Counted from the stretch's first letter, positions 5,619 to 23,575 are shown. The stretch: 64,000 bases of DNA from Minisyncoccia bacterium (GCA_041742075.1 JBGSJJ010000004.1:35900-99899), one strand, 5' to 3'. Numbers and translations are program-made. Notes: generated by a model from the letters alone, not told the origin.

Positions 5619-5619
5619 A

Positions 5620-8819: not shown

Positions 8820-8856
8820 ACACTGGTTATTTTATTTCCGTGTATACTAGACGGAT

Positions 8857-9174
8857 ATGTTGGCTAAGAAAGAACGATTAAACCGAACTGCGTTTGATCG
8901 TTTTTTTGTATCGGGTAAGCGCTACAATAGCCCCTATTTTCAACTGATTTATACCCCTTATAAAAACTTCCATGGGTCGGTGGTGGTGGGAAAAAAAGTC
9001 TACAAAAAAGCCGTTCTCCGTAACCGTCTCCGCCGGCAGGTGTATGGTGTGTTGTATCGAAATAAGACAACCTTAAAGATAGGAGTCTATATTTGTATAG
9101 CAAAACCAGCCAGCACTTCCCTACTTAAAGGTACCATAATTATTGAACTAGAAAAATTACTCAAGCAGATGTAG
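8857..9174 (+). CDS. rnpA: ribonuclease P protein component
   Basis: 105 aa basic protein directly after rpmH; LNRTAFDRFF...RNRLRR pattern of RnpA. Confidence 0.85.
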   Translation: MLAKKERLNRTAFDRFFVSGKRYNSPYFQLIYTPYKNFHGSVVVGKKVYKKAVLRNRLRRQVYGVLYRNKTTLKIGVYICIAKPASTSLLKGTIIIELEKLLKQM

Positions 9175-9246
9175 AGGTTTTCGACAGTCCCCTCGTTTCG
9201 AGGTAGAATAGCTAAATTACACAAGATTCCTACCCCTTTAACTTTT

Positions 9247-9975
9247 ATGTTCAGTTTTATTTGGCACACATTTTTCTTTGACCCAATTTACAATGGTCTC
9301 GTCTTTTTTATAGATGTTATACCAGGTGGTGACGTGGGTTTGGCTATTATTTTTATTACAATACTCGTGAAAGTTATCTTATTACCTCTGTCTATAAAAG
9401 CAGCTAAAACTCAGGTCGTGATGCGGGAGATTGAACCAAAACTTAAAGAACTTAAAGAAAAAATTACTGACAGACAAGAACAAGCAAAAGCCATGATGCT
9501 TCTGTATAAAGAATCAGGCATTAATCCCTTCGCCAGTATCATCCTCGTTTTTTTACAGATACCGATTTTAATTGCCCTCTACTTAGCTCTTTCAAAAGGA
9601 GGTGGTGTACCACTACCGGCTATTAATACAGATATTTTATATACCTTTATTCCTAATCCAGAATCAGCCTCAATGCTTTTCTTAGGTATTCAAGATATAA
9701 CCCTTCGCAGTTTACCCCTAGCGCTCTTAGCGAGTGTATTTCAGTTCATTCATGGCTCACTTACTATCCCAAAAGCTACACCACGTGACCCGAATGTCCC
9801 ACTAACCCTTAAAGAAGACTTTACGCGTAACATGCACCTTCAGATGCGCTATGTGATGCCGATAATTATTTTCTTTGCGGGGTATACAATCTCAGCGGCG
9901 CTCGCACTTTATTTTGCTATCAGCGCTCTGATGGCGATTGGAACAGAGTTTATCGTGAGACGCTACCGAAACTAA
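9247..9975 (+). CDS. yidC: membrane protein insertase YidC/Oxa1 family (short Gram-positive-like form)
   Basis: 242 aa, multi-TM; follows rnpA; conserved LPL..K/ Q..M..I.P...EL segment. Confidence 0.85.
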   Translation: MFSFIWHTFFFDPIYNGLVFFIDVIPGGDVGLAIIFITILVKVILLPLSIKAAKTQVVMREIEPKLKELKEKITDRQEQAKAMMLLYKESGINPFASIILVFLQIPILIALYLALSKGGGVPLPAINTDILYTFIPNPESASMLFLGIQDITLRSLPLALLASVFQFIHGSLTIPKATPRDPNVPLTLKEDFTRNMHLQMRYVMPIIIFFAGYTISAALALYFAISALMAIGTEFIVRRYRN

Positions 9976-11093
9976 CCAGCTCCAATACCGAGAGTACAGG
10001 TCACCACACGATTTATAACACCGCTAGTAACTGGCGTTCCACCAGCTTGATTACACTGGGCAGTTTGAGCAGAGCAATTCCAACCCAATAACCCGAAATT
10101 ACACGGATACGTTTCGGTTCTCGTCGTGGCTGGTGGGTTAGCTGGATCATCTGTTGGAGTGTCTACAGAGTCTATAGGAGTACTGCGGGCACCATAACAA
10201 AGTACCTCTCCCGGGTTACTGGTATTGACGATGCCGAGTTGACTTCCACCACTACAGCGAGCAGTAATGACTGCATCAGTATTCCACGAAGTACAACGTT
10301 CAGCACTTTGTCTAAGACAGGTTGCTTCTAATCTGTCCATTTCACAACCGCCAACTTCAGTACAGTAGTCGAGTAGGTCAGCCCGTATATCGTCTGGAAT
10401 GTCTTCAGGTAAGCCAGGAACTATCGCCGGGTCAACAATTACATCACTGGGTTCTGGAATGATACAACTATATACAATTCCGGTAGCTGTTACATTTGTG
10501 ATACGTGTTTGCCTATCAGGACAACTTTCTGGTCCGGTGATCACGTCTGAATCAGGGTCTGGTTCGCCCGGCCCGGGAGGTTCTGGATTTTCACCGATAC
10601 CGTCACCATCGCTGTCTCTAGGAACGGGTCGATATTGCTGGCCACACTCTACATCGGCCCAGATGTTACCGATATTTTGACCACGTAAGGCTTCCCAGTA
10701 CGTTCCTCCACCAGAGACGGTTAATGCTTTGAGTACCGTGTCGACTATCGTCCATGCCCCAAGGAGTAAGACGAGGCCAATTAAGGCATTGACGAAAAAT
10801 ACTTTTGCTTTGGCGTAGGCGGCCTGGTTTCCACCTGAAAATACGAGTTTAAAACCAGCGTATATAAGCACTAAAGCGACAAAGATGGTCGAGATAGTAA
10901 CTATCCAATCCACCACCACGTCTATCTGCTGTACTAAGTGACAAAAGTTACATTCAGGGCCTTCACACACCACTAAGCCAGCTGGTCCCGGGTCTTGTGC
11001 GAAGCTGGTGCTAGGGAAAGCAAAAACACTCAGAACAAGGAAACTTATGGTGAGTAAAGAAAGTGTCCGCACGAAAAGTGAAGCTAAAGACAT
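9972..11093 (-). CDS. secreted membrane protein: signal peptide + two hydrophobic helices (VirB2/TrbC pilin-like topology) + about 230-aa Cys-rich extracellular C-terminal domain
   Basis: Signal peptide ...STSFAQ; CEGPECNFCH; TM1 VVVDWIVTISTIFVALVLIYAGF; loop SGGNQAAYAKAK; TM2 FVNALIGLVLLLGAWTIV; at least 14 Cys in the C-terminal part. Last gene of the T4SS-like operon. Confidence 0.5.
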   Translation of the reverse strand: MSLASLFVRTLSLLTISFLVLSVFAFPSTSFAQDPGPAGLVVCEGPECNFCHLVQQIDVVVDWIVTISTIFVALVLIYAGFKLVFSGGNQAAYAKAKVFFVNALIGLVLLLGAWTIVDTVLKALTVSGGGTYWEALRGQNIGNIWADVECGQQYRPVPRDSDGDGIGENPEPPGPGEPDPDSDVITGPESCPDRQTRITNVTATGIVYSCIIPEPSDVIVDPAIVPGLPEDIPDDIRADLLDYCTEVGGCEMDRLEATCLRQSAERCTSWNTDAVITARCSGGSQLGIVNTSNPGEVLCYGARSTPIDSVDTPTDDPANPPATTRTETYPCNFGLLGWNCSAQTAQCNQAGGTPVTSGVINRVVTCTLGIGAG

Positions 11094-11098
11094 ACGTG

Positions 11099-12295
11099 TT
11101 ATTGAACCAAAGCTGGGTCAAACACCCAGAGTGTGTTATCGGTCTTGTTTCTAAAGACAATCTTTGACCAATCATCAACCATAGACATGTTTGTGACATC
11201 AAGTTTTCTGCCGGCAGCGGTAAGTGGACTGAGGAAGAAGACGTTCTGTCCGGTTTCGAGGTTAAAGAACCAGAAGGTATCATCTGAAGTTAGGGTTCCT
11301 TTATACCACGCATCAATAAACGTCGTGCTGGTCTCGGCTTCTGGCACGGCACACCACATAAGGACACTATCTGGCCTGGAAAACGTACATTTCTCTGGTA
11401 GTAAGAGGTGATCTGTTTGGTATAGGGTTTTGGTTGGGGTCACTGTCTCACTAAACAGTACGCGATTTTGCGTATACGTATAGATAGAGGCGACATCGTT
11501 TTTGAGCATGACTAAACTAGCCCCACTATTTCCTATTGGAATAAGTGTGTTGTTCCTAATCTCATACGCATACCCTTCAAGGAGAGGAGATGGCTTGGTG
11601 TAAGTATAGATACCTTCTATGGTGTGACCCCACACTATTTTTAATTGACGAATTTTGAGTGAAAATAGTTCTTGGCGCACTTGGGTGTCGAGGTTGTAGC
11701 TATAACCTTTAGTTCCGTTTTGGTTCTCGAGGGTGTAGAGAATGACGCGATTATTTTCATAAGCAATATTGCTTGGATTTGGTGGTAAGGGAATAGTCTC
11801 TTGGGTTTCAGGCGACCCTTCCTCAAGCCCTAGTTCAGCCACAAAACTCGAACGGGTATTGTCGATGTAGGTGCTATAGACAACAGATGAGCCGTCTGGG
11901 GAGAACACAGCTTCGACTGACTGCGGAACCGTCATTTTAGATACGGAGGTCTCTTCCCCAGTAAAGAGATTTATTTCATAGACGTGTCCCACTCCCCGCT
12001 CGGCAAAACGGACTTTGGGATAGCCAGCTGTGGTTGTTATCACAAAACCAGAAGCAGGCCGGTTCGAGAGTAATTTAAGCGGGAACTTGGCGAGGGCTTC
12101 TGGGTCGGGAGTGGTATCAACGATCGACTCACTCTCTAGTTCCTGAAGTGGGCGATCTTCTCCGCCCGTAAAGCCGAGGTTAGTAAATATTTCCCCACCA
12201 GACTTAGGGGTACCAAAAAATAGTAAATACAACCATACTGAAATGAGTATGATAAGTATGAGTATTCCCCCGCCAATTAATATTCCTCGTTTCAT
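11099..12295 (-). CDS. N-terminally membrane-anchored hypothetical protein (T4SS-like operon)
   Basis: 398 aa; single N-terminal TM (ILIGGGILILIILISVWLYLLFF) then a large extracytoplasmic domain; start 3 nt-scale spacing from neighbours. Confidence 0.6.
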   Translation of the reverse strand: MKRGILIGGGILILIILISVWLYLLFFGTPKSGGEIFTNLGFTGGEDRPLQELESESIVDTTPDPEALAKFPLKLLSNRPASGFVITTTAGYPKVRFAERGVGHVYEINLFTGEETSVSKMTVPQSVEAVFSPDGSSVVYSTYIDNTRSSFVAELGLEEGSPETQETIPLPPNPSNIAYENNRVILYTLENQNGTKGYSYNLDTQVRQELFSLKIRQLKIVWGHTIEGIYTYTKPSPLLEGYAYEIRNNTLIPIGNSGASLVMLKNDVASIYTYTQNRVLFSETVTPTKTLYQTDHLLLPEKCTFSRPDSVLMWCAVPEAETSTTFIDAWYKGTLTSDDTFWFFNLETGQNVFFLSPLTAAGRKLDVTNMSMVDDWSKIVFRNKTDNTLWVFDPALVQ

Positions 12296-12304
12296 AAATA
12301 TAGG

Positions 12305-13177
12305 CTAAATGTTTTGACAAGAACAGCTCCTACCGTTATTTCCCTGATCCTGACATAGTAACGTTCGGGTCTCTGTGCCACAAAACTCATTGCCAGTACA
12401 GGCGTCGCCCGAAACTTGTGAAGTTGGTTGTGTCCACACACAAACTCCACCAGGATTAGTATTGTCGCCACCGCCTCCACCCGTGCCGTCAGCCCGGGTG
12501 ACATTTCTGAGAGCATCGAGCTCAGCCCTTTGCGCTTCAAGTGCGGCACGCATGTCAGCGTCAGAACCGGCACCTAAGGCATCAAGTTCAGCCAGGGCCT
12601 CATCTATGGCAGCTAACATGGCCTCTACTTGATTTCGGTCCATTTGGGCTAGGTTTAATCGAGCTGGGAAACAGAGGTATTGGTTTGGGATAAGATTTCC
12701 ATCAGCATCAGTAGCTTGCTCAAAGCGTCCAGGCAGAGCATCACACGCGAGACGACTAACCGCCACCGCATTGGGTTCGTCTCTCACAATTCCGATAGGG
12801 TTAAAGGTTGAGCGGTTATCCTCGCCTTCCCCCGATTCTAAGAAAGCTAGGTTGGTCAAACTGGTGTTGACGGTGTTCAAAATTATTACTGCCGCGAGCA
12901 CGATAAGCAAGCCAAGAATAGCGCCCCTGATGTCTCGCTTAGCATCTTCTTTACTCGTTACGATGTCGGAGAGAACGTACTTTACTCCCGCAATGGTGAT
13001 TTTAAGTAAGGCCAACACTGCCGCAATTGAGATAGAGAGAATATACAGTGCGTTTAGGTAGGCGTCGACGTCTATGTTGCCTTCGTCTACCCCCGGGATA
13101 CCAACCATAACCTGAAACTCCTGTGCAAAGGTATTGAGTGGGAAGAGGAGAGCGAGAACGATAAGTGTTTTTAACAT
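12305..13177 (-). CDS. second VirB2/TrbC pilin-topology protein with coiled-coil and Cys-rich C-terminal extension
   Basis: Signal peptide MLKTLIVLALLFPLNTFAQ; TM1 LNALYILSISIAAVLALLKITIAGVKYVL; charged loop SKEDAKRDIRG; TM2 AILGLLIVLAAVIILNTV; C-terminus ...CVWTQ...CTGNEFCGTE...CQDQGNNGRSCSC. Confidence 0.5.
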   Translation of the reverse strand: MLKTLIVLALLFPLNTFAQEFQVMVGIPGVDEGNIDVDAYLNALYILSISIAAVLALLKITIAGVKYVLSDIVTSKEDAKRDIRGAILGLLIVLAAVIILNTVNTSLTNLAFLESGEGEDNRSTFNPIGIVRDEPNAVAVSRLACDALPGRFEQATDADGNLIPNQYLCFPARLNLAQMDRNQVEAMLAAIDEALAELDALGAGSDADMRAALEAQRAELDALRNVTRADGTGGGGGDNTNPGGVCVWTQPTSQVSGDACTGNEFCGTETRTLLCQDQGNNGRSCSCQNI

Positions 13178-13180
13178 AAC

Positions 13181-14323
13181 TTAAAATCTAATTTGAAATG
13201 AATTACGAGCTGCACTGATGATGTCTGAGGCACTGCGAATCTGAAGTCCAACGGTATACTCAGCACTACCGCTGTCTTTACGAAGGGTTATTTCGTACGG
13301 GTTTTTAAGTGAACCGCTTACTTTCCTACCACCAAGTGTCCACGAGACACTAGCGCCAGAAGCCAGGCTACTCTTTTCTAAGTGGTAGGGTGCCCCAAGT
13401 ACCGTTATTTCATTGGCGGTCAAGTCAAATGGAGACTTAAGAGCTACTTCACTAATACCCCTAAGGGCGTTATTTTCATAGAAAATAAGTTCTCCTTCAG
13501 TTAAAGGTACGTCAATACTTTTTCGCCCAATACGGAGACCGTCAAGGTTTGAGACTTCAACCACTAGGGTGACTTCTTTGCGGAGTGGTGGAGAAAAGCG
13601 GATGGTGTTGCCTCCACGCGTGTTTCCCCCGTTTATTACTTTGTTTTCGAGCTTCCATACATAACTGAGGTCACTAGAACCTATGCCAGTACCGGTATAC
13701 ACGACTGCAGTAGCAGAAATAGGAGAATTAACGCCAGGCAAACTTCTACCCGCATAGAAAACCGGAGCGGTGGTATTGGCATCGATAATGATGTCTACAC
13801 GTATTGGTCTAAAGGTGTAGCTTGCGCTGACTTTTACCCCACTTTCCATAACGAGCTCGGCGCGGACTTCCTTTGTCTTACCTAGTGCGGGGCTGACAAT
13901 AGTAATTTTACGGAGACCTGTAAGAGCATCAATCCGGGCTCCATCGACATACCATACAATAATCGCACCGACGGTATTGAGTGAATAATCATCAAGTCGT
14001 ATTTCGGTAACCGTATCGGGTGGTGGAAAGCTCGGTGAGGCAATAAGGCTTGCTGGACTCCCATTGGTTTGAAATGACTGTATACCAGTCCCTTGACTCG
14101 GCGCATTGGTAGTAGGGAGGCTTCCGTTGAACTGATTTAAAGCGTTAATCAACGACTGCTCGTAGTCGCCTGCTATATTGGTATTGAGTCTATATTCAGG
14201 AAGGGCAATATCGCTTATTGACAAACCCTCACTATCTTCATCTGATTGTGCAAATGAGTTTTGCGCAATCATAAAACTAGTTATGATGAGGAGAAACAAA
14301 AATTTGCGAGCCCAATTTTGCAT
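13181..14323 (-). CDS. secreted hypothetical protein (cleavable signal peptide), T4SS-like operon
   Basis: 380 aa; N-terminal signal peptide ...QNSFAQ; beta-rich composition; no recognisable catalytic motif. Confidence 0.6.
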   Translation of the reverse strand: MQNWARKFLFLLIITSFMIAQNSFAQSDEDSEGLSISDIALPEYRLNTNIAGDYEQSLINALNQFNGSLPTTNAPSQGTGIQSFQTNGSPASLIASPSFPPPDTVTEIRLDDYSLNTVGAIIVWYVDGARIDALTGLRKITIVSPALGKTKEVRAELVMESGVKVSASYTFRPIRVDIIIDANTTAPVFYAGRSLPGVNSPISATAVVYTGTGIGSSDLSYVWKLENKVINGGNTRGGNTIRFSPPLRKEVTLVVEVSNLDGLRIGRKSIDVPLTEGELIFYENNALRGISEVALKSPFDLTANEITVLGAPYHLEKSSLASGASVSWTLGGRKVSGSLKNPYEITLRKDSGSAEYTVGLQIRSASDIISAARNSFQIRF

Positions 14324-14375
14324 AATTTAATCATAGCATAGCCACTAATTACAAAACTTTACTTGCGAACAGTCT

Positions 14376-15350
14376 TTAGGGACGATACGCATGCTGAACC
14401 ATAAAAGCCCAAATGATGACCGCGGGTATAAAGTTGAAAAATGGGAGAAAGTATATGATGAGACTGATAGAAAACCATACCCACAACAGTCCTTTCATGG
14501 AGTTTACTCCAGCTATCTGGTACGAAAGCCAGCCACCAACACAAAAAACAAAACCGGTAATGATATTTAAAGCATATCCAAGTATAGCAACCCCTAAAAA
14601 CATCTCAGCGACGTTTGTCCCGACCCAATTTACCCCACTCCCGAGGAAGCTACCGATAAACGGTACATAGGCAAGCGCGGCAGCAACCCCGTTTACTGCG
14701 GACTTAATGAGTGAGCCAGTACCGACTCCGAAGACAAAAATAAGGAAAAAAAATATTTGAATAGTACAGAAGCCAATTGCAAAGGTAATAAGCATCCTCG
14801 AAATAGTTTTGGCTGCTACCCGGGTGTAGAGGCTTTCACTTGACTCCTCTTCCATAGTCTCAAAGCCACGGGCAGTAGCTTGAGGGTTTTCTAAAACCGT
14901 AATAGTTTCTTCACCCACCTCGTCTTTCGGTTTTTTTTTCTCGGTGCGGTAGAGATTTTGCTTATCTTTGATGCTTTCTCCTAATAATGCCGGACGTCCC
15001 TTACGATCATCCCTGTCAGCTATAATGTTTCCCTCAGTATCCCAATCGTCTGAGGTGTTGGCAACACCGGGTTTTCGGTTTTGGTTGGCGGGAACCATGT
15101 CTTGACGACCCGTCTCCTTTGTATCGCTCATAAAGGGAGAGTTATAAATCACCCGGACGTTTGTCGGACTTTCTACTCGTGGAGCTTTAGTCGGATTAGC
15201 GGGGAGAGAAGAAACTTTTCTGTCATACGCATCAGTCCGGACACCAAAGCCACGTGGAATTTTAGGTGCTGGTGACTGACTTGAGTCAGTTCTACGAACA
15301 CCAGGATTAATGTCTTCAAAATAGGTGTCTTTTCTGTTTGGTTCTGCCAT
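14376..15350 (-). CDS. polytopic membrane protein (disordered basic/Pro-rich N-terminus, 4-5 C-terminal TM helices), possibly VirB6/VirB3-like accessory
   Basis: 324 aa; N-terminal about 170 aa low-complexity; C-terminal hydrophobic block FAIGFCTIQIFFFLIFVFGV ... ILGYALNIITGFVFCVGGW ... WVWFSISLIIYFLPFF. Confidence 0.55.
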   Translation of the reverse strand: MAEPNRKDTYFEDINPGVRRTDSSQSPAPKIPRGFGVRTDAYDRKVSSLPANPTKAPRVESPTNVRVIYNSPFMSDTKETGRQDMVPANQNRKPGVANTSDDWDTEGNIIADRDDRKGRPALLGESIKDKQNLYRTEKKKPKDEVGEETITVLENPQATARGFETMEEESSESLYTRVAAKTISRMLITFAIGFCTIQIFFFLIFVFGVGTGSLIKSAVNGVAAALAYVPFIGSFLGSGVNWVGTNVAEMFLGVAILGYALNIITGFVFCVGGWLSYQIAGVNSMKGLLWVWFSISLIIYFLPFFNFIPAVIIWAFMVQHAYRP

Positions 15351-15362
15351 ACCTGGTGTTGG

Positions 15363-17168
15363 TTAGCTATTGGCACGAAGTTCCTCGCGCGCTTTTTTAA
15401 TCTGAAGAATTTGGGATGGGTCAGAGGTAATAATTTGGTCCTCGGTATACGAGGCAATCACTTTAATCGCTACGTGCTTCATGCCGGCAAAGAAGATACC
15501 TTCCCCTACCCCACTTTCAAGGAGAAGAAACTTCTCTTCATCAGTTAGGTTGAATGTCTGTTGAATGTTATCTATTGCAGTCGGTGACTGCTTCATAAGA
15601 AGCTGAAGACTGGAGTTGGTGATCATCGGAATTCCGTATGGTGAGCGGAGGAAGTCGTCCACGTCTTGGGTAATCGTCGAAAGACCAAGGTAGTATTTTC
15701 GTCCACGTTTGGCGAGCATAAAGAGGAAAGACGCCGTGTCTTCACTTTTCATCATCCACCAGGCTTCATCGATTACCAAGAGTCGTTTAGTGAGGCGTCT
15801 TCTAATGGCACTCCAGATGTGGTTGGTGATGATGTACATTGCCACCGTTTTAAGCTCGTCTTCCATGTCTCGCAAGGAAAACACTACGAATTTTTGGTTG
15901 ATGTCGACGTTGGTTGGTTTGTTCATAAAACCAGACCAGGTACCTGAAGAGTATTTTTGGAGTCGAGAAATCAGTGAACCACTCCCCTCCATGCCGGCGA
16001 GCACCATTTCGAAGTCTGAAAGTAGTGGTGGTTCAAGGGTGCTGTAATCACTGGTTCCTGTAATGTCCTTAAGTGCATAGGTTTCGATAATGGCTTGGTC
16101 AATAATAGTTTCCTCCTCTGGAGTCAGTCCACCAAGCATGAGGCGGAACATACCCATCAGCTCGATAATATGCGAACGTAAAATATCGCTCGGACTCTCG
16201 TCAGGTTGTGCTATCGGTAAGTCAAACGGATTAATGTGGTGAGAAGAAGAAAGCGAAATATTGAAAAACCGACCACCGGTGGCTTCTGCTAGGTACTCGT
16301 ATTCACGCTCCGGGTCAATCACGATTACCTCGACCCCAAACATAAGTGAACGCAAAATCTCTAGCTTGGTGGTGTATGACTTACCGGCTCCAGAGGTAGC
16401 AAACGTAACGGAGTTGTAGTTGGTGAGCTGGAACCGATCGAAGAGGACAAGACTTGAGTTGTGGCGGTTGATGCCATAGAGGATACCGGTGTCCGACGTA
16501 AGGTCAAACGAAACAAACGGAAAGAAACTTGAAAGTGGGGCGGTGTTGAATTTACTGTGAATAAGTAGTTCGTCTGAACAAGTCGGGATCACACTCCGAA
16601 TCCCTTGCTCTTGCTGAAAGAGCGCTGGTTTAAGGTGAATCAGACGAGCATCAAGGATACTTTTTATTTCTGATTCGGTTTTATTTAAAACTGCCTCGTC
16701 CTCACCATAGATAGTTACATAGAGGCCCACATTAAAAAGCTTCTCTTCCGCCTGTTGAAGCTTGTCGCGCAGGTCTTCGAGGTTGCGCCAGGCGGCTTCA
16801 AGTTGTGGATCACGCACCATACCTTGTTCAGCGCGGATGTTTATTTGACTCTGTACCTCAGCTACTTTTTTCTGGAACTTCTTGAGTGTTTCAGCTGTAT
16901 CAATCGGGTGAATCACGATTGATACATCGAGTTCTTTTTCAATGTTAAGAATTGGCTCAAGCCAGCCATCGTTTAGGTAACGTGGGTAGGATACGGTGAA
17001 AAACGTTCGGGCATAGGTACCACTGATGTTTATGCTTCTGGTGTTAATTTCAATTCCCGATGGAGCGATAATGTCCTCTAGGGTAAGCAGTGCTTCAGAA
17101 ACCGCCGAGACGGAGTTATCATCAAAGTTTGAAGTTTTTTTTGGTTGTAAGAAGTCTAGTAAAGCCAT
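15363..17168 (-). CDS. virB4: VirB4/TrbE/CagE-family type IV secretion ATPase (ATPase-domain ORF)
   Basis: 601 aa; Walker A FATSGAGKSYTTK; Walker B LLVIDEAWWMM (DEAW typical of VirB4); size and motif order of the VirB4 C-terminal two thirds. Confidence 0.85.
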   Translation of the reverse strand: MALLDFLQPKKTSNFDDNSVSAVSEALLTLEDIIAPSGIEINTRSINISGTYARTFFTVSYPRYLNDGWLEPILNIEKELDVSIVIHPIDTAETLKKFQKKVAEVQSQINIRAEQGMVRDPQLEAAWRNLEDLRDKLQQAEEKLFNVGLYVTIYGEDEAVLNKTESEIKSILDARLIHLKPALFQQEQGIRSVIPTCSDELLIHSKFNTAPLSSFFPFVSFDLTSDTGILYGINRHNSSLVLFDRFQLTNYNSVTFATSGAGKSYTTKLEILRSLMFGVEVIVIDPEREYEYLAEATGGRFFNISLSSSHHINPFDLPIAQPDESPSDILRSHIIELMGMFRLMLGGLTPEEETIIDQAIIETYALKDITGTSDYSTLEPPLLSDFEMVLAGMEGSGSLISRLQKYSSGTWSGFMNKPTNVDINQKFVVFSLRDMEDELKTVAMYIITNHIWSAIRRRLTKRLLVIDEAWWMMKSEDTASFLFMLAKRGRKYYLGLSTITQDVDDFLRSPYGIPMITNSSLQLLMKQSPTAIDNIQQTFNLTDEEKFLLLESGVGEGIFFAGMKHVAIKVIASYTEDQIITSDPSQILQIKKAREELRANS

Positions 17169-17171
17169 AGA

Positions 17172-17807
17172 TTAATTTATACGGGGTGCGTCACCAGTGG
17201 TATCCCCCGGGTTAAAGATATGATAAAAAAGCTCAACTAATTCTTCATTCTGAAGTGGAACCGTGCGGACACCAATCCGAATCAGTCCCTGTTCAACGAG
17301 GGTAGACCGTTGCTCGAGTTGAACCCGGTATTCTTCAAACTGTTTTTCATCAAACAGTGACTTGTTCTTCTTACTACCAAACATAGAAGTGATACCCGAG
17401 GCTAGGTTTGCTTGAATCGGTGTGTACGGCACTACAATGAAAAAGTTTTTACTCATAATATCCACCTCAGTCGTGAAGGTGCGAATGAACTGCATGTATT
17501 CTCGAAGTTGAATTTGCATCAGGTCATTGTCTTGGATAGGTTCCCGAGCTTCGAGTAAGGCAAGATAGGGTGTGATGTCGAGTCGTCGTGACTGGATATA
17601 AAACTGAATCGAGAAATCGAGCGTGTTTAAAAAAGACTGAAATTGAGTCAAAATAGCCTGTTGTTCGTCGGCACTCTTAAGGGCGAAGTTGATTGAGGAG
17701 GCGAGTAAAATAGTGCAAAGTTTACCATCTTTTAAAACCACCACATTTTCTTTAATGTCGCGGACAGGGACGAAATCTTGAGTTGCTGGTTTTACGTTAG
17801 AAGCCAT
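17172..17807 (-). CDS. VirB4 N-terminal domain ORF (separated from the ATPase ORF only by an in-frame TAA plus one codon)
   Basis: 211 aa; same frame as the downstream ATPase ORF (...PRIN-TAA-TCT-ATG-MALL...); N-terminus VPVRDIKENVVVLKDGKLCTILLASSINFALKSADEQ resembles the N-terminal region of Gram-positive VirB4 homologues (from memory). Confidence 0.6.
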   Translation of the reverse strand: MASNVKPATQDFVPVRDIKENVVVLKDGKLCTILLASSINFALKSADEQQAILTQFQSFLNTLDFSIQFYIQSRRLDITPYLALLEAREPIQDNDLMQIQLREYMQFIRTFTTEVDIMSKNFFIVVPYTPIQANLASGITSMFGSKKNKSLFDEKQFEEYRVQLEQRSTLVEQGLIRIGVRTVPLQNEELVELFYHIFNPGDTTGDAPRIN

Positions 17808-17808
17808 A

Positions 17809-18225
17809 TTATTTTACTTTTTGGAGAGCCTGCATTTCTAGTTTACGGGAGAGCGAGTTTATACCTCCTTTACCAGTCGTGGGCATAGTCTGAATACCAG
17901 AAGCACTACGCGCGTCTCCCGACGCTCTATCTCGGTACACAACGTCAGTTCGTTTGTGCCAGTAGTACATCTTGGTTTTTTTGTAGTAGTTGACGACTGA
18001 TTCAAGAAAGATTGAAAAGGGACGGTTGTTCACTGGATAAAAAGCGAGCAGTAGGGCGAGGAGAGTAAGGGGAAGACCAATTAAGAGAAACACGATGAGT
18101 CCAAAGACAATGTACGAAACGACCCCAACCCCAACCCCGCCAGCTAGATACACGAATTGTTTCCAGGTGAAGGGACCAATGATTTTGTCTTCGATTTCAA
18201 TAAATTGAGGTACCTCAAAACGCAT
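17809..18225 (-). CDS. PrgI/VirB3-like small membrane protein
   Basis: 138 aa; MRFEVPQFIEIEDKIIGPFTWKQFVYL start and double-TM hairpin, typical of the PrgI family found immediately upstream of VirB4 in Gram-positive T4SS loci. Confidence 0.55.
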   Translation of the reverse strand: MRFEVPQFIEIEDKIIGPFTWKQFVYLAGGVGVGVVSYIVFGLIVFLLIGLPLTLLALLLAFYPVNNRPFSIFLESVVNYYKKTKMYYWHKRTDVVYRDRASGDARSASGIQTMPTTGKGGINSLSRKLEMQALQKVK

Positions 18226-18277
18226 ACATATGTATTATACATTGTACTTTACAATTAGCGGCGTAACTTATGCGAAC

Positions 18278-19204
18278 TTATCCCCGACCGTCGTTTGCTT
18301 GGTCGCTACTGAAGTCAGGCGTAGGTACCACCGGTGCTCGTTTTAGCAAGGCATCTTGCGCCACACTATGAATGATATTTTTATTGGCGTCCGGAGTTCC
18401 GTAGAGCTCAGGATATTTTTCTCGATACGCACCGTAGCCATGAATTCGTTCGTTGTCAGTATCCATGGTTCGAACAGGTGCTATGTCAGCAGGACGTTCA
18501 GTTTGGGGTGGTGGCGGAGTAGCAGTAAATGGGTTTGGGATATTGAGTGGCGGAACTGAGCTAACTGGTTTAGTTACCGGCAGTGGTTCAGAAACCACTG
18601 GTTCAGACAAGCTCGTGAGGCGAGCCGAAGAAGCAGGGCCGGCGATTGGTACCTGGGCGACTGACGGAATAGGGCTTGGGGCCACAGTATCGTACGTTGT
18701 ACTAGCGGTAGGAGGTATTACTGGTTGAAACACTGCTTGGGGTGGATTTGGTGCTGTTGCTACTGTGCTACGTGGGGCCGGAGTAGTTTGGGCAGACATA
18801 CCGGTCGGGACTGTTTCAGAGGCTGGTTTTAGGTAGTTTTTGGTAGTTGCTGAAGATGTTCCAGGTAGTGGGCTTTGTGGCAGTGGTGCAGACACAACGA
18901 CACTTTGCGCACTTTTTTCTTTGAGAGTTTTTACTGTTTGGGAAATTTCCAGAGCCAGACTCATTTGTATATCATCAGTTACACCGAGCGAACTAAGCTC
19001 ATTAAGCATCGACTTTAAATCAACGAGGCCAAGAAGATAATAGCTCATCGCAGTGGTAAGAGCTCGCCTATTTTTATCCTCGAGGTGGTGTTTTATAAGA
19101 AGAGCGGTGACGGCAATCGGAATTTGCTCTGAGTCAATCAGGGTCTTTACCTCAGCCGGAGCCTTGGTGTATGCGTCTTGAAATTTTTCCCAGTTACTTT
19201 GCAT
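18278..19204 (-). CDS. hypothetical protein with Pro/Thr/Ser-rich low-complexity C-terminal half (T4SS-like operon)
   Basis: 308 aa; N-terminal helical region, no TM; C-terminal PxxP-rich tract. Confidence 0.55.
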   Translation of the reverse strand: MQSNWEKFQDAYTKAPAEVKTLIDSEQIPIAVTALLIKHHLEDKNRRALTTAMSYYLLGLVDLKSMLNELSSLGVTDDIQMSLALEISQTVKTLKEKSAQSVVVSAPLPQSPLPGTSSATTKNYLKPASETVPTGMSAQTTPAPRSTVATAPNPPQAVFQPVIPPTASTTYDTVAPSPIPSVAQVPIAGPASSARLTSLSEPVVSEPLPVTKPVSSVPPLNIPNPFTATPPPPQTERPADIAPVRTMDTDNERIHGYGAYREKYPELYGTPDANKNIIHSVAQDALLKRAPVVPTPDFSSDQANDGRG

Positions 19205-19215
19205 ATGTGAATGAT

Positions 19216-21348
19216 TTACCTAAAGAATTCTGAACCGTAGACTGAGTTATTTGCCCAATTAGCCCATGGTCCTGGCGGTACGGTTGGAGAGCCACCTGGT
19301 GGCGGAACCAGACCTCCGGCATTAATTAAGACAGCTGTCATGAGTCTTATACGCTCGTTTTCGTTAATTCCGTTTTTCATACGAGCCTCAATAATTCTTG
19401 GGGTGATGTATCCAATCATTTCTGGACGAATCAAAGCGTCTACTGATAGTGTGCCGACGACTGCATCGCCACCAGCTAAGAGTCGTTGTCGTTGAGTAGT
19501 TTGATGTCCTACAGCAGTACCTCCAGTACGTAGAGCGGTATTCGTAGCTTCATAGATTGGAGCGGCTGCCGTTCCCCCGGTTTGAACAACACTAGCTGTT
19601 CCAAACTGCGCAACATTATTTTGTGCTGTGCGACGAGCAGCTCTAATAGCGTTGATGTCTTCGTTACTAAAGTTTCCTGAACCTTCAAGAGAAGTTATCT
19701 GAGCATCAGTAAGGTTAATAGCCACGTTACCATTTGTAAGTTGCCCGACGTCTAAGTTGGCACGTTCGCTATTTGACATCTCACGAATTGTTGTAGCAAG
19801 ATCTCGAAGACTGGTATCGAGCTCCCCAACGGTTCTGGTGTTGTCTTCTAAACCAGCTAGGTGTTCAGCAAACGCAACCTCGCGAGTCTGTTCAGCCAAT
19901 ACCTGGTTGTTTCTAATGTTTTGCTTTTTCTCAAAGGTGTTAACATCGTTTCGTGATTGTTTACCTCCGTACTTAGCAGATGCCGTGGCGTCAATAGCTT
20001 GCTGACGAGTTCGTGCAGTGAGTCCGACAGCACCGAGCGCAACCCGACCCACTCTCGCGCCGGCTGAATTACTGGTACTTAAACGAGCATTAGCCCGGGC
20101 AACGGCTTTCCCAACTCTCGTATCTGGATCACCAATACGGCCAAGAGTATTCCTTCCAACAAATGAACTCCCGCCTCCGACTAATGAACTCGCGCCTCCG
20201 ACTAACCTCCTTTGCACGCTTTGCATCGCGTTAAGTGACATAGAAGCGCCCCCGGCACCCATTTTCTTCGAAACAACGATGGCACCAACCATGAAACCAA
20301 GGGCAATTAAGTAAAACAAAATCGAAAGTGGCACGTCGTTACCAGTTTCTTCTGGGTTGAGGGCGATTTTGTTGAGGTTGTAGGTTGAACCAGCCTCAAA
20401 TGCCTGTGCGTGAAAGCCTATCAATACTTTGAAAGCAATAAAAATCATAAAGAAGTAGGCTGGAGCAAAAAAAGCTTGGTTTAAAAACCCACTCCACCAC
20501 TTACTGGTGTAGCCCTGAAACTTCGGTAGAATCATACCCAGGAACATAAAGGGTGAGAACATCATGTATATCACCAGGGAGATAAATCTAATAGTGAGCA
20601 TGATGGCACCTGCCAAAAACACCGCCGCTGAGGTGAGCATAAACACCAAAATCATAAGCAGGTAGCCAAAGCTCCGATAGCCTTCTTGGTCAATGGCTTC
20701 TGCCCCACCCAAGGCTTGGAGTCCGACGAGTTGCATAAACATAGCGTGTATACCAACACTCTCTGGGCTTTCGATATTTATGGTAGGAAGCGTAGCCCCT
20801 TCGGGAAAAACAGAGGCGGTGGTGTTAACTGTCTCTGCCATGAGGTTAAAAATTTGTATCGCGGCGATGTTTGAGAAGTCAACGATAAATTTTGCAAAGA
20901 AAAGACTAAAGTTTATGAGAAGCGCCGCCACAATCAAAGAACCAAGCGCTCGCTTGGCGCCACTATCGTCAGCGTTCCAGATAAGCTTCAGTCCAATAAA
21001 CACCAGTGCAAAGATAAATAGCATGTTAAAGACGTCTCGAATGATCACCCAGACCTCCTCAACTGCAATACCGATGTTGCCAAGCATCCATTCACCCATA
21101 CCGCGGACAAAGTTATTTACCGCAGCATCAAAGGCAATCCCGGCCAGCCAAACAGCAAAACCACCAATCTGCATGACAACGTGATAGAAGAAGGCAAAAA
21201 TCCAAGCCCCGACACCACTTTCGTCAGCGTCGACTACGGTTGGGGCAGTCCCTTGAGCATGAGATAGGGCCGGAAGCACGAAAAAGAGCGCAATACAAAG
21301 TATCGGGAACCAGGTTCTTAAAATGAGTTGTAATACAAAGTACTTCAT
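19216..21348 (-). CDS. VirB6/TrbL-like polytopic membrane protein with about 330-aa C-terminal extension
   Basis: 710 aa; signal peptide/first TM; at least 6 hydrophobic helices over residues about 50-390; C-terminal soluble region with coiled-coil-like segments. Confidence 0.55.
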   Translation of the reverse strand: MKYFVLQLILRTWFPILCIALFFVLPALSHAQGTAPTVVDADESGVGAWIFAFFYHVVMQIGGFAVWLAGIAFDAAVNNFVRGMGEWMLGNIGIAVEEVWVIIRDVFNMLFIFALVFIGLKLIWNADDSGAKRALGSLIVAALLINFSLFFAKFIVDFSNIAAIQIFNLMAETVNTTASVFPEGATLPTINIESPESVGIHAMFMQLVGLQALGGAEAIDQEGYRSFGYLLMILVFMLTSAAVFLAGAIMLTIRFISLVIYMMFSPFMFLGMILPKFQGYTSKWWSGFLNQAFFAPAYFFMIFIAFKVLIGFHAQAFEAGSTYNLNKIALNPEETGNDVPLSILFYLIALGFMVGAIVVSKKMGAGGASMSLNAMQSVQRRLVGGASSLVGGGSSFVGRNTLGRIGDPDTRVGKAVARANARLSTSNSAGARVGRVALGAVGLTARTRQQAIDATASAKYGGKQSRNDVNTFEKKQNIRNNQVLAEQTREVAFAEHLAGLEDNTRTVGELDTSLRDLATTIREMSNSERANLDVGQLTNGNVAINLTDAQITSLEGSGNFSNEDINAIRAARRTAQNNVAQFGTASVVQTGGTAAAPIYEATNTALRTGGTAVGHQTTQRQRLLAGGDAVVGTLSVDALIRPEMIGYITPRIIEARMKNGINENERIRLMTAVLINAGGLVPPPGGSPTVPPGPWANWANNSVYGSEFFR

Positions 21349-21359
21349 TCTCTATCGTG

Positions 21360-22583
21360 TTAACCGACGGGGTCTACCCCTGGTGGGTCGACAGGAGTGG
21401 CGGGATCGATTGGGGTATCAACAACCGGGTCGACTGGGTCTACCGGTGGCATGTCTGGGTCACCAACTACTGGGTCAATTGGGTCTTCTTCTCCTGGAAA
21501 GATTGGGTCAAATGGGTCGTCTGGGTCTGGAGGTGTGTCAGGGATGTTGATTATGATTGGGTCAGTATCCCACCTTGTAGGGTCGGGTCGGTTGGTTGGG
21601 TTATTGACGTCATTACCAAGTTGATCAAGGAAGCCAGTAGGACCGTCAGTTAGTCCGAGTAGTCCCCCGACGCCTTGGAGGGCTTGGTTGAGGAGTTGTT
21701 GGAAGAGTGCGCTGATAAGCTCATCTATTTCGTCAGCCTCAATCAAGGTACGCGGACCGACTGAAAGTTGAAAAGTGAGTGCTTCTGAAATAACCTGACC
21801 CGGTGTCTCTATCGTACAGTTGGTTGGATTGTCTGGATCTTCACAGCGCTTGACAGAGAGAAAACCATTACCGAAGTCAAGTAATTGACGCTCGTTTACC
21901 TCTACACCAGCAATCTTGGCGTTTAACCTGGCCTCAAGGGCAAACTTCTGACCAAGCGCAGTGTTTTCACTCGGACGTTGTGTCATTTCAAGCCAGGCTG
22001 GCCAACCGCCACCACCGATGAAGTCTCCGTTAAGGAAGCCTTCGATGTTGTTGGTAATATCGCTTAAGCGACACTGTGCCTCGTACTCCCGGGCATTACT
22101 TTGCTGTTCACGGAAAGAGTTGGTGACGGCAATCTGTACATCGAGTGAAAACGGTTCGCAGAGCCCGGCTAGATTACTTTGTGAAATAAACTCACCAAAG
22201 GTTTGGTCAGCCAGGTCAAGCGCAAATGCCTCGAGGTCTTGGATAAAAGCAGGACTACCCTGGAAACCACTGTTTATCCAGGTAAGAAGGCTTTGGGTCA
22301 TTGACTGTAAGATCATTTTGGCAAACCAAAATAGAAGTCCGTCCAGGGCAAATTCTTTAATTTGAAGTAGCCCTGTCATTTGAGCAGAAAATGTGTCGAC
22401 TTGGGCGTTGACGGTGTTTATGAAAACGTTAGCCTGTTGCGTTCCTTCAAGGGCAAAAGCTGCTTCAGCCCTCTTTAGTGAGCCCGTATGCGCAAAGGGT
22501 TGCAGGGTAAGCCCGGCCACTATTAATGTGATGAGCAGTACTGTACTTGGAGTTTTTAGTAGTTTTTTTAACATACACACCAT
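21360..22583 (-). CDS. secreted hypothetical protein with C-terminal Pro/Asp/Val repeat tail
   Basis: 407 aa; N-terminal TM/signal peptide; C-terminal ...PVDPVDPVVDTPIDPATPVDPPGVDPVG repeats (cell-envelope spanning or anchoring tail?). Confidence 0.6.
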   Translation of the reverse strand: MVCMLKKLLKTPSTVLLITLIVAGLTLQPFAHTGSLKRAEAAFALEGTQQANVFINTVNAQVDTFSAQMTGLLQIKEFALDGLLFWFAKMILQSMTQSLLTWINSGFQGSPAFIQDLEAFALDLADQTFGEFISQSNLAGLCEPFSLDVQIAVTNSFREQQSNAREYEAQCRLSDITNNIEGFLNGDFIGGGGWPAWLEMTQRPSENTALGQKFALEARLNAKIAGVEVNERQLLDFGNGFLSVKRCEDPDNPTNCTIETPGQVISEALTFQLSVGPRTLIEADEIDELISALFQQLLNQALQGVGGLLGLTDGPTGFLDQLGNDVNNPTNRPDPTRWDTDPIIINIPDTPPDPDDPFDPIFPGEEDPIDPVVGDPDMPPVDPVDPVVDTPIDPATPVDPPGVDPVG

Positions 22584-22585
22584 GA

Positions 22586-23458
22586 CTAAATTTGACCTTC
22601 TAAGAGCTGATAGAGACTGTCGTTCTCTCCAAGCTGCACCCCGCTCCCGGTAGTCAATTTTTTTCCGATATTGACAAGAGCTTGTGCCATACCAAGTACG
22701 TCATCTTGGTAACGGCTGAGCCTAAGCATGCCGAGCATGGGGTCATCAAAAGCACCACGCATGGCCTTCACGTCGTTTAGTACCGCATAGTAAGCGTTTA
22801 ACAAATTTAAATGTTCGGTCACGTACGCTTCTGGTACTTGAAGTAGCTGCATATCTATAATCATACCGCGGTACCCGAGAATAATGGGGTCTAGTCCCTC
22901 CAAATCCTGGGGGTTATTCGAACGTTGAGCTCTTTGCATGACGACTATTTCTGAGTCACCATCGTAGGGGTATTTCTGGATAATGTCTGCAATTGCGTTA
23001 CCGTAGGTGCGGAGTGATTCTTGGTCACCAGTAGCAACAATGACAATGTCGCTTTGGGTGAAGAGTCGATCTTTGGCTTTTTCAGCCAGGGCATTGGTAG
23101 CACCGGCGATAAGTTGTTCCTGCGGACGACTCACGGGACCAAGCGTCTCGTTGGTTACATATGCCTGAAAAAAAGCTACACTAAACTGATCAGTGAGAGA
23201 ATCTGGGTTCCACTCCGTACTGCTCCCAGTACTCGGGGTTATGATTTCGGTTCGCACTAAAGACTCCTGCCAGTCTGGCGTACCGTTGTTATTACTGTCG
23301 GTAACCTGTACGTAATTTCGTTCAGGTGCGTCAGTGACCACGACCAGTTCGCCATTTTCCTGAGAGCCGTTTTGTTTATCTTTTGTAATCACTACAAAAG
23401 CAATCAAGGCGATACCAAGTAGTAGGGCGACATAAACTTTCTTGTGTGAAGTCACCAT
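22586..23458 (-). CDS. N-terminally membrane-anchored hypothetical protein; first gene of the T4SS-like operon
   Basis: 290 aa; single TM (VYVALLLGIALIAFVVI) then extracytoplasmic domain; start abuts next gene. Confidence 0.6.
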   Translation of the reverse strand: MVTSHKKVYVALLLGIALIAFVVITKDKQNGSQENGELVVVTDAPERNYVQVTDSNNNGTPDWQESLVRTEIITPSTGSSTEWNPDSLTDQFSVAFFQAYVTNETLGPVSRPQEQLIAGATNALAEKAKDRLFTQSDIVIVATGDQESLRTYGNAIADIIQKYPYDGDSEIVVMQRAQRSNNPQDLEGLDPIILGYRGMIIDMQLLQVPEAYVTEHLNLLNAYYAVLNDVKAMRGAFDDPMLGMLRLSRYQDDVLGMAQALVNIGKKLTTGSGVQLGENDSLYQLLEGQI

Positions 23459-23466
23459 AGTAGTGT

Positions 23467-23530
23467 CTATACTGTATTAGTATAACAGTATAAAAATCAC
23501 ACTTTATACATATATATGTATAAAGTGTGA
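23467..23530. promoter_or_regulatory. operator-like palindromes in the promoter region of the T4SS-like operon
   Basis: Perfect 34-bp palindrome TCACACTTTATACATATATATGTATAAAGTGTGA (23497-23530), plus inverted repeat TATACTGT-N9-ACAGTATA (23468-23492) overlapping a TATACT -10-like hexamer on the minus strand about 35 nt upstream of the ATG at 23458. Confidence 0.45.
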
Positions 23531-23575
23531 TTAAGAATTGAATAACGAGTCTTTCTGTGTGTACAAACCTGGGGA

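Follow-up and report, generated by a model that had tools for sequence, protein, structure and literature searches.

What kind of apparatus does a type IV secretion system (T4SS)-like operon encode when none of the usual genes for DNA transfer accompanies it, and what could such an apparatus be for? This question is raised by a 64,000-nucleotide stretch of DNA from a Minisyncoccia bacterium (GCA_041742075.1, JBGSJJ010000004.1:35900-99899), the whole of which we call the window, in which positions 9972-23458 hold exactly 12 open reading frames (ORFs), all on the minus strand. A first-pass annotation, made from the sequence alone, had described 12 co-directional genes there as a Gram-positive-style T4SS-like apparatus, and our ORF list agrees with this layout. 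We refer to the genes as g1 (22586-23458) to g12 (9972-11093); from g1 to g12, the spacers are 2, 11, 11, 52, 1, 3, 12, 52, 3, 9 and 5 nt long, that is, between 1 and 52 nt. The genome belongs to the Paceibacteria and is Kaiserbacteria-like.

The locus is a chromosomal, non-conjugative Patescibacteria T4SS-like operon beside dnaA, and the system to which it belongs has already been published. The novelty that the first-pass annotation implied is therefore lost, as such systems were described between 2023 and 2025 (Wang et al. 2023, PMC10633639; Quiñonero-Coronel et al. 2025, PMC12102498; a 2025 review, PMC12857230). We consider it likely that the operon is a vertically inherited chromosomal Patescibacteria T4SS derived from monoderm MPF_FATA conjugation machinery. 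Our confidence in its identity and architecture is very high, and for pilus building and host contact, which are suggested by analogy, we regard the balance as roughly even.

A membrane core with a VirB4 ATPase split over two genes

All ORFs of at least 144 amino acids (aa) in the 64 kb were compared with Pfam, and the least clear ones also with NCBIfam. The product of g7 matches the NCBIfam model conju_CD1110 with 368 bits against a cut-off of 325, over profile positions 164-734 of 752, as well as the Pfam families TraG P-loop (E = 3e-25) and AAA_10. It contains the Walker A motif SGAGKS and the Walker B motif DEAW, and in the PDB it matches Thermoanaerobacter VirB4 (4AG5, 1e-41) and R388 TrwK (7e-6). 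The first-pass identification of a VirB4 ATPase with both Walker motifs is thereby borne out, and so is the Gram-positive style of the system, since this VirB4 is of the monoderm CD1110/MPF_FATA type.

The neighbouring 211-aa protein g6 had been treated as an unknown. It is, however, the N-terminal domain of VirB4, related to TrsD: four VirB4 models, over their first 100-250 positions, and TrsD are matched with E-values from 4e-10 to 5e-5, among them VirB4_plasma (positions 101-248, E = 3.8e-10), TrsD (E = 1.8e-7), TIGR00929 VirB4_CagE (positions 7-179) and CD1110 (positions 2-102). These scores stay under the curated cut-offs because each model is covered only as a fragment, and g6 alone found no match in the PDB. 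As g6 corresponds to CD1110 positions 2-102 and g7 to positions 164-734, VirB4 is split over two genes, which had been overlooked. Instead of a single polypeptide, both domains and the motifs are present on g6 and g7, 3 nt apart. To place this arrangement in context, we used a set of related loci obtained by searching one genome per GTDB species with g7; at least 573 relatives were confirmed by tblastn, and the best 80 loci were used. A separate g6-type ORF of about 210 aa occurs in 78 of these 80 loci. The split is therefore ancestral, and neither a frameshift nor a sequencing artefact.

Directly upstream of g7, g6 is preceded by g5, so that PrgI- and TrsD-type genes stand beside virB4. The g5 protein matches Pfam PrgI above the gathering score (E = 1.1e-9; 39.1 bits, cut-off 27), in line with its earlier designation as PrgI/VirB3-like, and has a hydrophobic stretch of about 40 residues. 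By analogy, g5 would be the membrane anchor for VirB4.

The assignment of g3 is less direct. Hydropathy indicates that a signal-like N-terminus and about seven transmembrane (TM) segments occupy residues 1-360, and that the C-terminal part, of about 350 aa, is hydrophilic. The protein itself matches neither a Pfam family nor a VirB6 profile, its PDB profile searches returned nothing significant, and its match to the CD3337/EF1877 mobilome membrane protein family is weak (E = 0.006). Among its positional orthologues, 9 of 45 match PF04610 (TrbL/VirB6; best E = 2e-8), and the g3 profile weakly matches a 753-aa protein upstream of PrgI in a conjugative Embleya locus (E = 5e-4). From these sequence relationships we accept g3 as a probable extended VirB6, so that the VirB6 gene expected near virB4 is found indirectly, through orthologues. 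Profile searches thus gave significant matches for VirB4 and PrgI, as anticipated, but for VirB6 only among the g3 orthologues; the first-pass reading of this 710-aa protein as VirB6/TrbL-like stands through nine of them and not through a VirB6 match of g3 itself. The evidence establishes a membrane core composed of the g5 hairpin, the two-piece VirB4 (g6/g7) and the VirB6-like g3.

Pilin modules with variable, cysteine-rich ectodomains

Two proteins had been credited with VirB2/TrbC topology, g10 and g12, and profile searches uphold this. The g12 protein exceeds the gathering score of Pfam T4SS_pilin (34.6 bits against 26.6, E = 2e-8) and also matches TrbC (8e-4) and the Mbov_0395 pilin-like family (E = 5e-5). 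The g10 protein lies just below the same threshold (23.9 bits against 26.6, E = 4e-5) and matches DUF4134 and the Mbov_0395 pilin-like family of mycoplasma integrative conjugative elements (ICEs; E = 0.0016). The two proteins are paralogous through the pilin module (E = 1e-4). In both, a signal peptide and two TM helices, seen by hydropathy, accompany the profile match, as in VirB2/TrbC-type pilins, but the small size of such pilins (about 70-130 aa when mature) is not seen: g10 has 290 aa, g12 has 373 aa and the median in the lineage is 279 aa.

The additional length is due to C-terminal extensions that are rich in cysteine. All 8 cysteines of g10 are in its extension, and of the 16 in g12, 13 are in the extension and 3 precede the first TM helix. 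With the g10 and g12 pilin modules as queries, an iterative search recovered 70 pilin-like ORFs, spread over 66 of the 80 loci (the median length given above is theirs), and the extensions in these 66 loci are up to 479 aa long, with a median of 135 aa. They cannot be aligned between species; tblastn with g10 covers about 36% of the protein, which is the pilin module only, and the g12 extension has no tblastn match in the 80 related loci. Cysteine makes up 3.9% of the extensions, compared with 0.36% of cytoplasmic proteins from the same loci, and 55 of 56 extensions have an even number of cysteines (binomial p = 1.6e-15). Cysteine enrichment and even counts are therefore strong evidence, at the level of sequence, that the extensions would form a disulfide-bonded extracellular domain. 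In the accessible portions of Wang 2023 and Quiñonero-Coronel 2025, we did not find hypervariable disulfide-rich pilin ectodomains across the lineage described.

In F-type pili, the termini of the pilin are on the exterior of the pilus. Domains such as those of g10 and g12 would therefore decorate a filament.

The other proteins of the operon

Six operon proteins had been listed as secreted or membrane-anchored without recognisable domains. For these former unknowns, alignments were built from positional orthologues in the related loci, and the description survives only in part: g1, g9 and g11 receive fold-level assignments, and g4 has no TM segment. Five operon proteins have Sec signals or anchors. 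The g9 protein begins with a signal peptide that, as read from the sequence, ends in AQ; its profile matches the Ig domain of phage T4 Hoc (E = 1.6e-4), and its orthologues match BiPBP_C (13 of 42) and Ig_3 (5 of 42). In g11, a TM segment at residues 4-22 is followed by an ectodomain whose profile matches TolB structures (E = 4e-7 to 6e-6), with PD40 detected in 2 of 41 orthologues and with invariant cysteines C303 and C315. The motif in g1 is of the thrombospondin-type-3-like kind, D54..D58-G59..D62-W63-x-E65, and a fold search with this protein returned generic four-helix bundles only, namely chemoreceptor ligand-binding domains and designed proteins. As these fold neighbours are generic, a sensor function is not proposed for g1.

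The remaining proteins are more elusive. PDB profile searches with g1 and g2 gave nothing significant. The g2 protein has four conserved cysteines (C142, C171, C247 and C256); its weak AlphaFold2 (AF2) model has no structural neighbour, and it has no tblastn match among 72,556 plasmids. The g4 protein has neither a TM segment nor a signal peptide by hydropathy. Its position, between the VirB6-like gene and PrgI, is occupied by an ORF of 150-320 aa in nearly every related locus, and it is fast-evolving, with a mean column identity of 13% and no Pfam family common to its 48 members. Similarly, an ORF of 230-400 aa follows VirB4 in most loci at the position of g8, with a mean column identity of 11%; no Pfam family is found for g8, even across the 41-48 positional orthologues of g8 and g4. 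A relationship of g8 to VirB6 was considered and dismissed, as hhalign shows no relation to the VirB6-like profile.

The first-pass annotation had pointed to VirB8- and VirB1-like folds as ones that the unknowns might contain, and none was found in g1, g2, g9 or g11. The operon proteins include no recognisable peptidoglycan hydrolase, and Pfam and NCBIfam, applied to orthologues as well, detect no toxin, enzyme or known effector domain in any of them. The errors of detail in the first-pass annotation, concerning the TrsD/VirB4 split, the direct VirB6 call and the absence of recognisable domains, leave its interpretation unchanged.

Two antisense ORFs on the plus strand, at 20693-21184 (163 aa, inside g3) and 21961-22365 (134 aa, inside g2), encode Ser/Ala/Pro/Cys-rich sequences. 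Most likely, neither codes for a protein and both are shadows of the genes on the minus strand.

Conserved gene order and vertical inheritance

Among the best 80 of the at least 573 relatives of g7, all are from Patescibacteria, with VirB4 identities of 68-94%. Those with names are mainly Kaiserbacteria, Paceibacteria and Parcubacteria, mostly metagenome-assembled genomes, and the closest is Ca. Kaiserbacteria HKST-UBA34 (94%). Outside the phylum, a tblastn search against the 72,556 plasmids found VirB4 proteins of at most about 35% identity, which are of the CD1110 type and come from Actinomycetota and Bacillota. By similarity, it is thus strongly suggested that this VirB4 belongs to the Patescibacteria clade nested in MPF_FATA. 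These relatives, together with the published system, agree with the likeness that the first-pass annotation had seen to loci on the chromosomes of episymbionts with small genomes.

On its downstream side, g12 is followed by yidC (9247-9975, convergent with it), rnpA, rpmH, dnaA (7071-8453) and dnaN (5620-6711). Upstream of g1 are ksgA (23576-24391), pcrA/uvrD (24433-26460), a gene for a LysM-M23 endopeptidase and one for a YifB/ComM-type ATPase. The order pcrA-ksgA-g1-g2-g3-(g4)-g5-g6-g7-(g8)-g9-g10/g11-yidC-dnaA-dnaN recurs in about 60 Paceibacteria species. For synteny counts, we considered only loci with complete flanks. Of 62 downstream-complete loci, 61 have yidC, 59 dnaA, 61 g11 and 57 g9; the 54 upstream-complete loci contain TrsD and PrgI without exception, the VirB6-like gene in 53 cases and ksgA in 48. 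The distance between dnaA and virB4 has a median of 5.4 kb in related loci. The occurrence of orthologous operons near the replication origin of related genomes, which the first-pass annotation had proposed to check, is thus supported as far as proximity to dnaA is concerned.

Median identity across species is 71% for VirB4, 60% for DnaA, 59% for PcrA, 56% for TrsD and 39% for DnaN. Identities fall to 26-38% for the envelope proteins, and tblastn does not detect g4, g8 and g12 in relatives. Fixed synteny and a VirB4 that is more conserved than DnaA therefore indicate vertical inheritance and not a mobile element. Furthermore, this gradient of constraint fits a conserved, essential motor with a fast-evolving outer face or host interface.

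The general Pfam and NCBIfam scans found no VirD4/TcpA, VirB11 or relaxase among the ORFs of the 64-kb window, as had been reported. Four ORFs of at least 120 aa were not scanned, each of 121-134 aa, and these are therefore too short for any of the three. The sole recombinase in the window is a XerC/D-like tyrosine recombinase, 12 kb from the operon, and G+C content does not change abruptly where the operon begins and ends. Where a mobile element would have an integrase, att sites and a patchy distribution, the locus has fixed synteny in about 60 species. Similarly, the coupling ATPase and relaxase of conjugative MPF_FATA systems and ICEs are missing from the window, and in the operon neither their VirB8-like scaffold (among g1, g2, g9 and g11) nor their dedicated hydrolase is recognisable.

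The position of the replication origin is a separate matter. The cumulative GC skew is almost flat over positions 1-64000, with a minimum at about 10989. Upstream of dnaA there are two tandem DnaA-box-like sequences, TGTGTATAA, at 8566 and 8577, and other DnaA-box-like 9-mers are scattered. Placement of the origin from skew and DnaA boxes failed within the window, so that a location next to oriC depends solely on the gene set dnaA/dnaN/rpmH/rnpA/yidC. To the right of dnaA, the minus strand carries about 75% of coding bases. With an origin at dnaA, replication would meet the transcription of the T4SS operon, ksgA and pcrA head-on, which sits awkwardly with the published rationale of gene dosage and high expression.

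Possible functions of the operon

By analogy with other T4SSs, the parts could work together as follows. The g5 protein would tether g6/g7 to the membrane beside g3, and ATP hydrolysis by g7 might extract pilin modules from the membrane and build from them a short stalk or filament that crosses the cell wall. The variable, disulfide-rich pilin ectodomains would be displayed outside and could recognise the surface of the host cell. The proteins g1, g2, g8, g9 and g11 may replace the VirB8- and VirB1-type parts of other monoderm systems, and the host-contact, wall-spanning part would consist of the Cys-rich domains and of the Ig-like, propeller and helical-bundle proteins. Rather than conjugative DNA export, the purpose is most likely contact with a host and the transfer of signals or of macromolecules that come from the host, with a slight preference for import. 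Without a coupling protein, classical export of substrates from the cytoplasm is less plausible, and three options are left: adhesion or pilus assembly alone, import as in ComB or Ced, and two-step export as in Ptl.

Conjugation would nevertheless be served by the operon if it were an ICE, or the remnant of one, with the genes for its type IV coupling protein (T4CP) and relaxase in another part of the genome. Its VirB4 belongs to the conjugative CD1110 family, the nearest relatives outside Patescibacteria include a truly conjugative Embleya locus with T4CP, relaxase and NlpC/P60 genes, our view is limited to 64 kb of the genome, and T4CP homologues are common in Patescibacteria yet distant from virB4 (PMC12102498). 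However, the window combines the absence of a relaxase, T4CP, adjacent integrase and composition break with a cluster set among dnaA, dnaN, rpmH, rnpA, yidC, ksgA and pcrA in an order shared by about 60 species, and a VirB4 more conserved than DnaA points to vertical descent under strong selection. Moreover, relaxases occur in only 103 of 3,035 genomes surveyed, and T4CP is not essential in Southlakia epibionticum (S. epibionticum; PMC12102498). We therefore regard conjugation as highly improbable, in keeping with the first-pass view that this is not a classical conjugative element, which the missing coupling protein and relaxase and the fixed position among housekeeping genes sustain. Export of effectors or toxins into or onto the host, either direct or in two steps through Sec and then the T4SS as in Bordetella Ptl, would make the secreted proteins of the operon its cargo. 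Exporters without a coupling protein do exist, for example Ptl and Brucella VirB (PMC12102498, PMC12857230), and export was proposed as an alternative by Wang et al. (PMC10633639). The five proteins with Sec signals or anchors also speak for export, and g4, which is fast-evolving, Pro-rich and free of a signal peptide, could be a substrate. On the other hand, no toxin, enzyme or known effector domain was detected in the operon proteins, nor any chaperone or recruitment module, and g9 and g11, kept by position in nearly all relatives, look structural. We thus consider export decidedly unlikely.

A machine for uptake of DNA or other nucleic acids, like Helicobacter ComB or archaeal Ced, would draw on host DNA as a source of nucleotides and would need no coupling protein. 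The VirB2/3/4/6-like proteins of the operon, without VirD4 or VirB11, amount to a ComB-like minimum set, and Patescibacteria are described as lacking nucleotide synthesis (PMC10633639). The authors of the published survey favour import of DNA or other macromolecules (PMC12102498). The weak, partial match of g7 to CedB (E = 4.5e-10) might be added to this, but it spans only the P-loop core common to all VirB4/HerA ATPases, and the operon has no recognisable nuclease or DNA-binding component. In addition, the T4SS of S. epibionticum is essential for epibiotic growth independently of comEC, which is dispensable (PMC10633639, PMC12857230), so that import would need another membrane channel. Dedicated DNA uptake thus appears unlikely, though less so than export. 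What we favour, with modest confidence, is a host-contact conduit in which import predominates. A bolder form of this proposal, in which each pilin joins a conserved membrane or pilus module to a hypervariable, disulfide-locked ectodomain and, with the lineage-specific TolB-like, Ig-like, four-helix-bundle and Cys-stapled helical envelope proteins, would build a structurally new wall-spanning monoderm T4SS, with the tips setting host range and the machine importing from the host, is tentative and on the whole doubtful.

Several points weigh against a pilus-building, host-contacting Patescibacteria T4SS. We know of no experiment on any Paceibacteria, and of no pilus yet seen on a Patescibacteria T4SS. 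The membership of g3 in VirB6 depends on orthologues and not on its own sequence, the AF2 model of g2 is poor, g4 and g8 are without assignment, and the operon shows no NTF2/VirB8-like or VirB1-like fold (g4 and g8 lay outside the modelling). A domain of 180-250 aa on each subunit might block packing, and g10 and g12 may then be surface proteins anchored in the membrane; a decorated filament and such plain surface proteins fit the data alike. High dosage from proximity to oriC is unsupported in the window, given the flat skew and head-on transcription. Finally, a coupling protein could lie outside the 64 kb, as distant T4CP homologues are present in most genomes (PMC12102498).

Few machines are known to be essential to episymbiotic life in this huge, mostly uncultured part of bacterial diversity, and the Patescibacteria T4SS is one of them. 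The present locus reveals no new principle, and the detail that it adds is useful but incremental: it is a clean and complete Paceibacteria example, whose parts list exceeds that of the published hidden Markov model survey by the split VirB4, the extended VirB6, the TolB-like, Ig-like and four-helix-bundle parts and the variable Cys-rich pilins. The contrast between an ultra-conserved motor and hypervariable surface parts offers targets for structural and host-range studies.

Sequences and genes around the operon

The spacer between ksgA and g1 contains a perfect 17+17-bp AT-rich palindrome at 23495-23532 (minus strand), AATCACACTTTATACATA TA TATGTATAAAGTGTGATT, followed by a T-run, and a second, 8-bp inverted repeat at 23462-23490, directly before the g1 ATG (Table 1). 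The palindrome may be a terminator of ksgA, a promoter-operator of the operon, or both. Its core, TATACATATATATGTATA, is found again in one relative (L005) and approximately in another (L001), and is absent from more distant ones. As the palindrome is kept only as a short AT core in two relatives, we make no claim of an operator, and scans for sigma-70 promoters and terminators gave background levels only. The spacer is much shorter in many relatives, so the transcription unit may start further upstream in some genomes.

The LysM-M23 enzyme is encoded 3.3 kb upstream of the operon, on the opposite strand, and the order M23(-)-pcrA-ksgA-g1 is kept in about 11 close relatives. Its NCBIfam matches are DipM/MepM-like, that is, general cell-division hydrolases. 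VirB1-like proteins with M23 or LysM domains have been noted (PMC12102498), and it is possible that this enzyme is a functional stand-in for the missing VirB1-type wall hydrolase, although the association is weak.

Two further observations concern more distant parts of the window. At 30078-31973 (minus strand), flanked by pnp and a gene for a DksA/TraR-type zinc finger, lies a 631-aa ORF for which neither Pfam nor NCBIfam gives a match. One related locus (L033) has a weak relative in the same context, with 26% identity across a third of the length. The gene for an extracytoplasmic function (ECF)-type sigma factor at 57758-58348 overlaps the start of a gene for a 537-aa DUF5667 protein (58242-59855), and the two may be a sigma/anti-sigma-like pair typical of Patescibacteria.

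Table 1. Genes of the operon and adjacent features, with coordinates in the window
Feature	Description	Coordinates	Strand	Evidence
g1	290 aa; bitopic envelope protein: N-terminal TM, Ca-binding motif, four-helix-bundle ectodomain	22586..23458	-	
g2	407 aa; signal-anchored, all-alpha ectodomain, Pro/Asp-rich tail	21360..22583	-	
g3	710 aa; 'extended' VirB6/TrbL-like polytopic membrane protein	19216..21348	-	orthologue profiles
g4	308 aa; N-terminal helical part of ~100 aa, then Pro/Ser/Thr/Ala-rich tail (13% Pro)	18278..19204	-	
g5	138 aa; PrgI/VirB3-like TM-hairpin protein	17809..18225	-	Pfam PrgI
g6	211 aa; TrsD-like, detached VirB4 N-terminal domain	17172..17807	-	NCBIfam
g7	601 aa; VirB4 ATPase (central and C-terminal P-loop parts), CD1110/MPF_FATA type	15363..17168	-	profile and motifs
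g8	324 aa; N-terminal region of ~180 aa predicted disordered/cytoplasmic, then 4-5 C-terminal TM	14376..15350	-	
g9	380 aa; Sec-secreted, tandem Ig-like beta-sandwich domains	13181..14323	-	profile
g10	290 aa; VirB2-like pilin module (signal peptide and 2 TM, ~1-110), then ~180-aa ectodomain with 8 Cys	12305..13177	-	
g11	398 aa; N-terminal TM anchor, TolB-like beta-propeller ectodomain	11099..12295	-	profile
g12	373 aa; second VirB2-like pilin module, unique ~250-aa Cys- and Pro/Asp-rich ectodomain	9972..11093	-	
ksgA-g1 intergenic region	117 nt	23459..23575	-	palindrome, T-run, second inverted repeat
LysM-M23 enzyme	LysM + M23 peptidoglycan endopeptidase	26744..27787	+	Pfam M23 8e-30, LysM 8e-21

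Relationship to known systems

The closest published counterparts are the T4SSs of Patescibacteria themselves. In the Saccharibacterium S. epibionticum, transposon sequencing found an 'apparent T4SS' (SEML1_0006-0019) to be essential for epibiotic growth, and this system was likened to Gram-positive conjugative systems, with pilins and without a coupling protein or relaxase (PMC10633639). Among the 3,035 genomes of the survey mentioned above, VirB4 was found in 2,417, nearly all in one clade nested in MPF_FATA, with TrsD, PrgI/VirB3, VirB6 and VirB2-like genes near virB4 and with relaxases as rare as already stated; the Paceibacteria locus was reported to be close to dnaA, dnaN, ksgA, rnpA and rpmH (PMC12102498). 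The 2025 review treats these systems as a new T4SS subgroup, and speculates on a pilus conduit for uptake from the host (PMC12857230). The present locus has the gene content and context of this family, with PrgI, TrsD, VirB6-like and VirB2-like genes near virB4, no relaxase or T4CP in the 64-kb window, and the dnaA/dnaN/ksgA context. Shared with other Patescibacteria T4SSs are the succession of a VirB6-like gene, PrgI, a TrsD-like gene and a VirB4 of about 600 aa, the VirB2-like pilins, the lack of relaxase and T4CP in the cluster, and the chromosomal position near the genome start or dnaA, ksgA, rnpA and rpmH. S. epibionticum differs in having six short pilins of about 127-139 aa, an NTF2/VirB8-like protein, and peptidase and lysozyme genes after virB4. 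In the locus described here there are instead two pilin modules, whose Cys-rich extensions measure 180-250 aa, together with a TolB-like propeller, an Ig-like protein, a protein with a Ca motif and four-helix bundle and a Cys-stapled helical protein; no VirB8-like fold was detected.

The conjugative MPF_FATA systems (CD1110/CTn2-Tn916, pGO1 with TrsD, and pCF10 with PrgH-I-J) share with the operon the CD1110 VirB4, PrgI, TrsD and a VirB6-like protein, as well as the lack of outer-membrane core proteins. Theirs alone are the coupling ATPase, relaxase, VirB8-like protein, dedicated wall hydrolase and location on mobile elements. Monoderm conjugative systems are generally described as being without VirB2 pilins, whereas the operon has pilin modules. 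On an Embleya plasmid (L082, NZ_CP108778), genes for a VirB6-like protein, a PrgI and TrsD fusion, VirB4, T4CP, relaxase and NlpC/P60 stand in a row, which is a conjugative layout. Its 349-aa protein annotated 'PrgI family' (7365-8414) matches both g5 and g6 (g6 E = 7e-14) and is therefore a PrgI-TrsD fusion of the SCO6880 type, the reverse of the split seen here. Helicobacter pylori ComB, which takes up DNA without VirD4 or VirB11, has VirB2/3/4/6-like parts, but also a diderm outer-membrane core (ComB7-10), and it passes DNA to ComEC; at the level of sequence, nothing links it to the operon beyond the shared VirB4 family.

The most similar layout outside Patescibacteria is on an 897-kb replicon of Pontibacillus sp. 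ALD_SL1 (L083, NZ_CP062975, 351-361 kb; locus positions 3042-14060), where the same module order is found: two pilin-like genes, a 779-aa protein, a small protein, a TrsD-like protein, a short VirB4 and a 1050-aa M23 hydrolase, whose gene directly follows VirB4. The TrsD-like ORF (274 aa) matches g6 with E = 3.5e-30, VirB4 matches with E = 7e-111, and g10 is homologous to both pilin-like ORFs. By profile search, neither the Pontibacillus nor the Embleya locus has a credible counterpart to g1, g2, g4, g8, g9 or g11; the only match with E <= 1, by g1 at 8.9 bits, was judged spurious. The Pontibacillus locus differs in that its pilins, of 145-151 aa, have no extension, its VirB4 is about 34% identical, and it adjoins flagellar genes and is not beside dnaA; no T4CP or relaxase is annotated within 9 kb. 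The Mbov_0395/0397 pair of pilin-like protein and VirB4 in mycoplasma ICEs is related to this type of locus. The Pontibacillus locus is thus apparently a pilin-bearing, non-conjugative monoderm T4SS outside Patescibacteria, and it suggests that the combination of pilins and a split VirB4 is not confined to that phylum.

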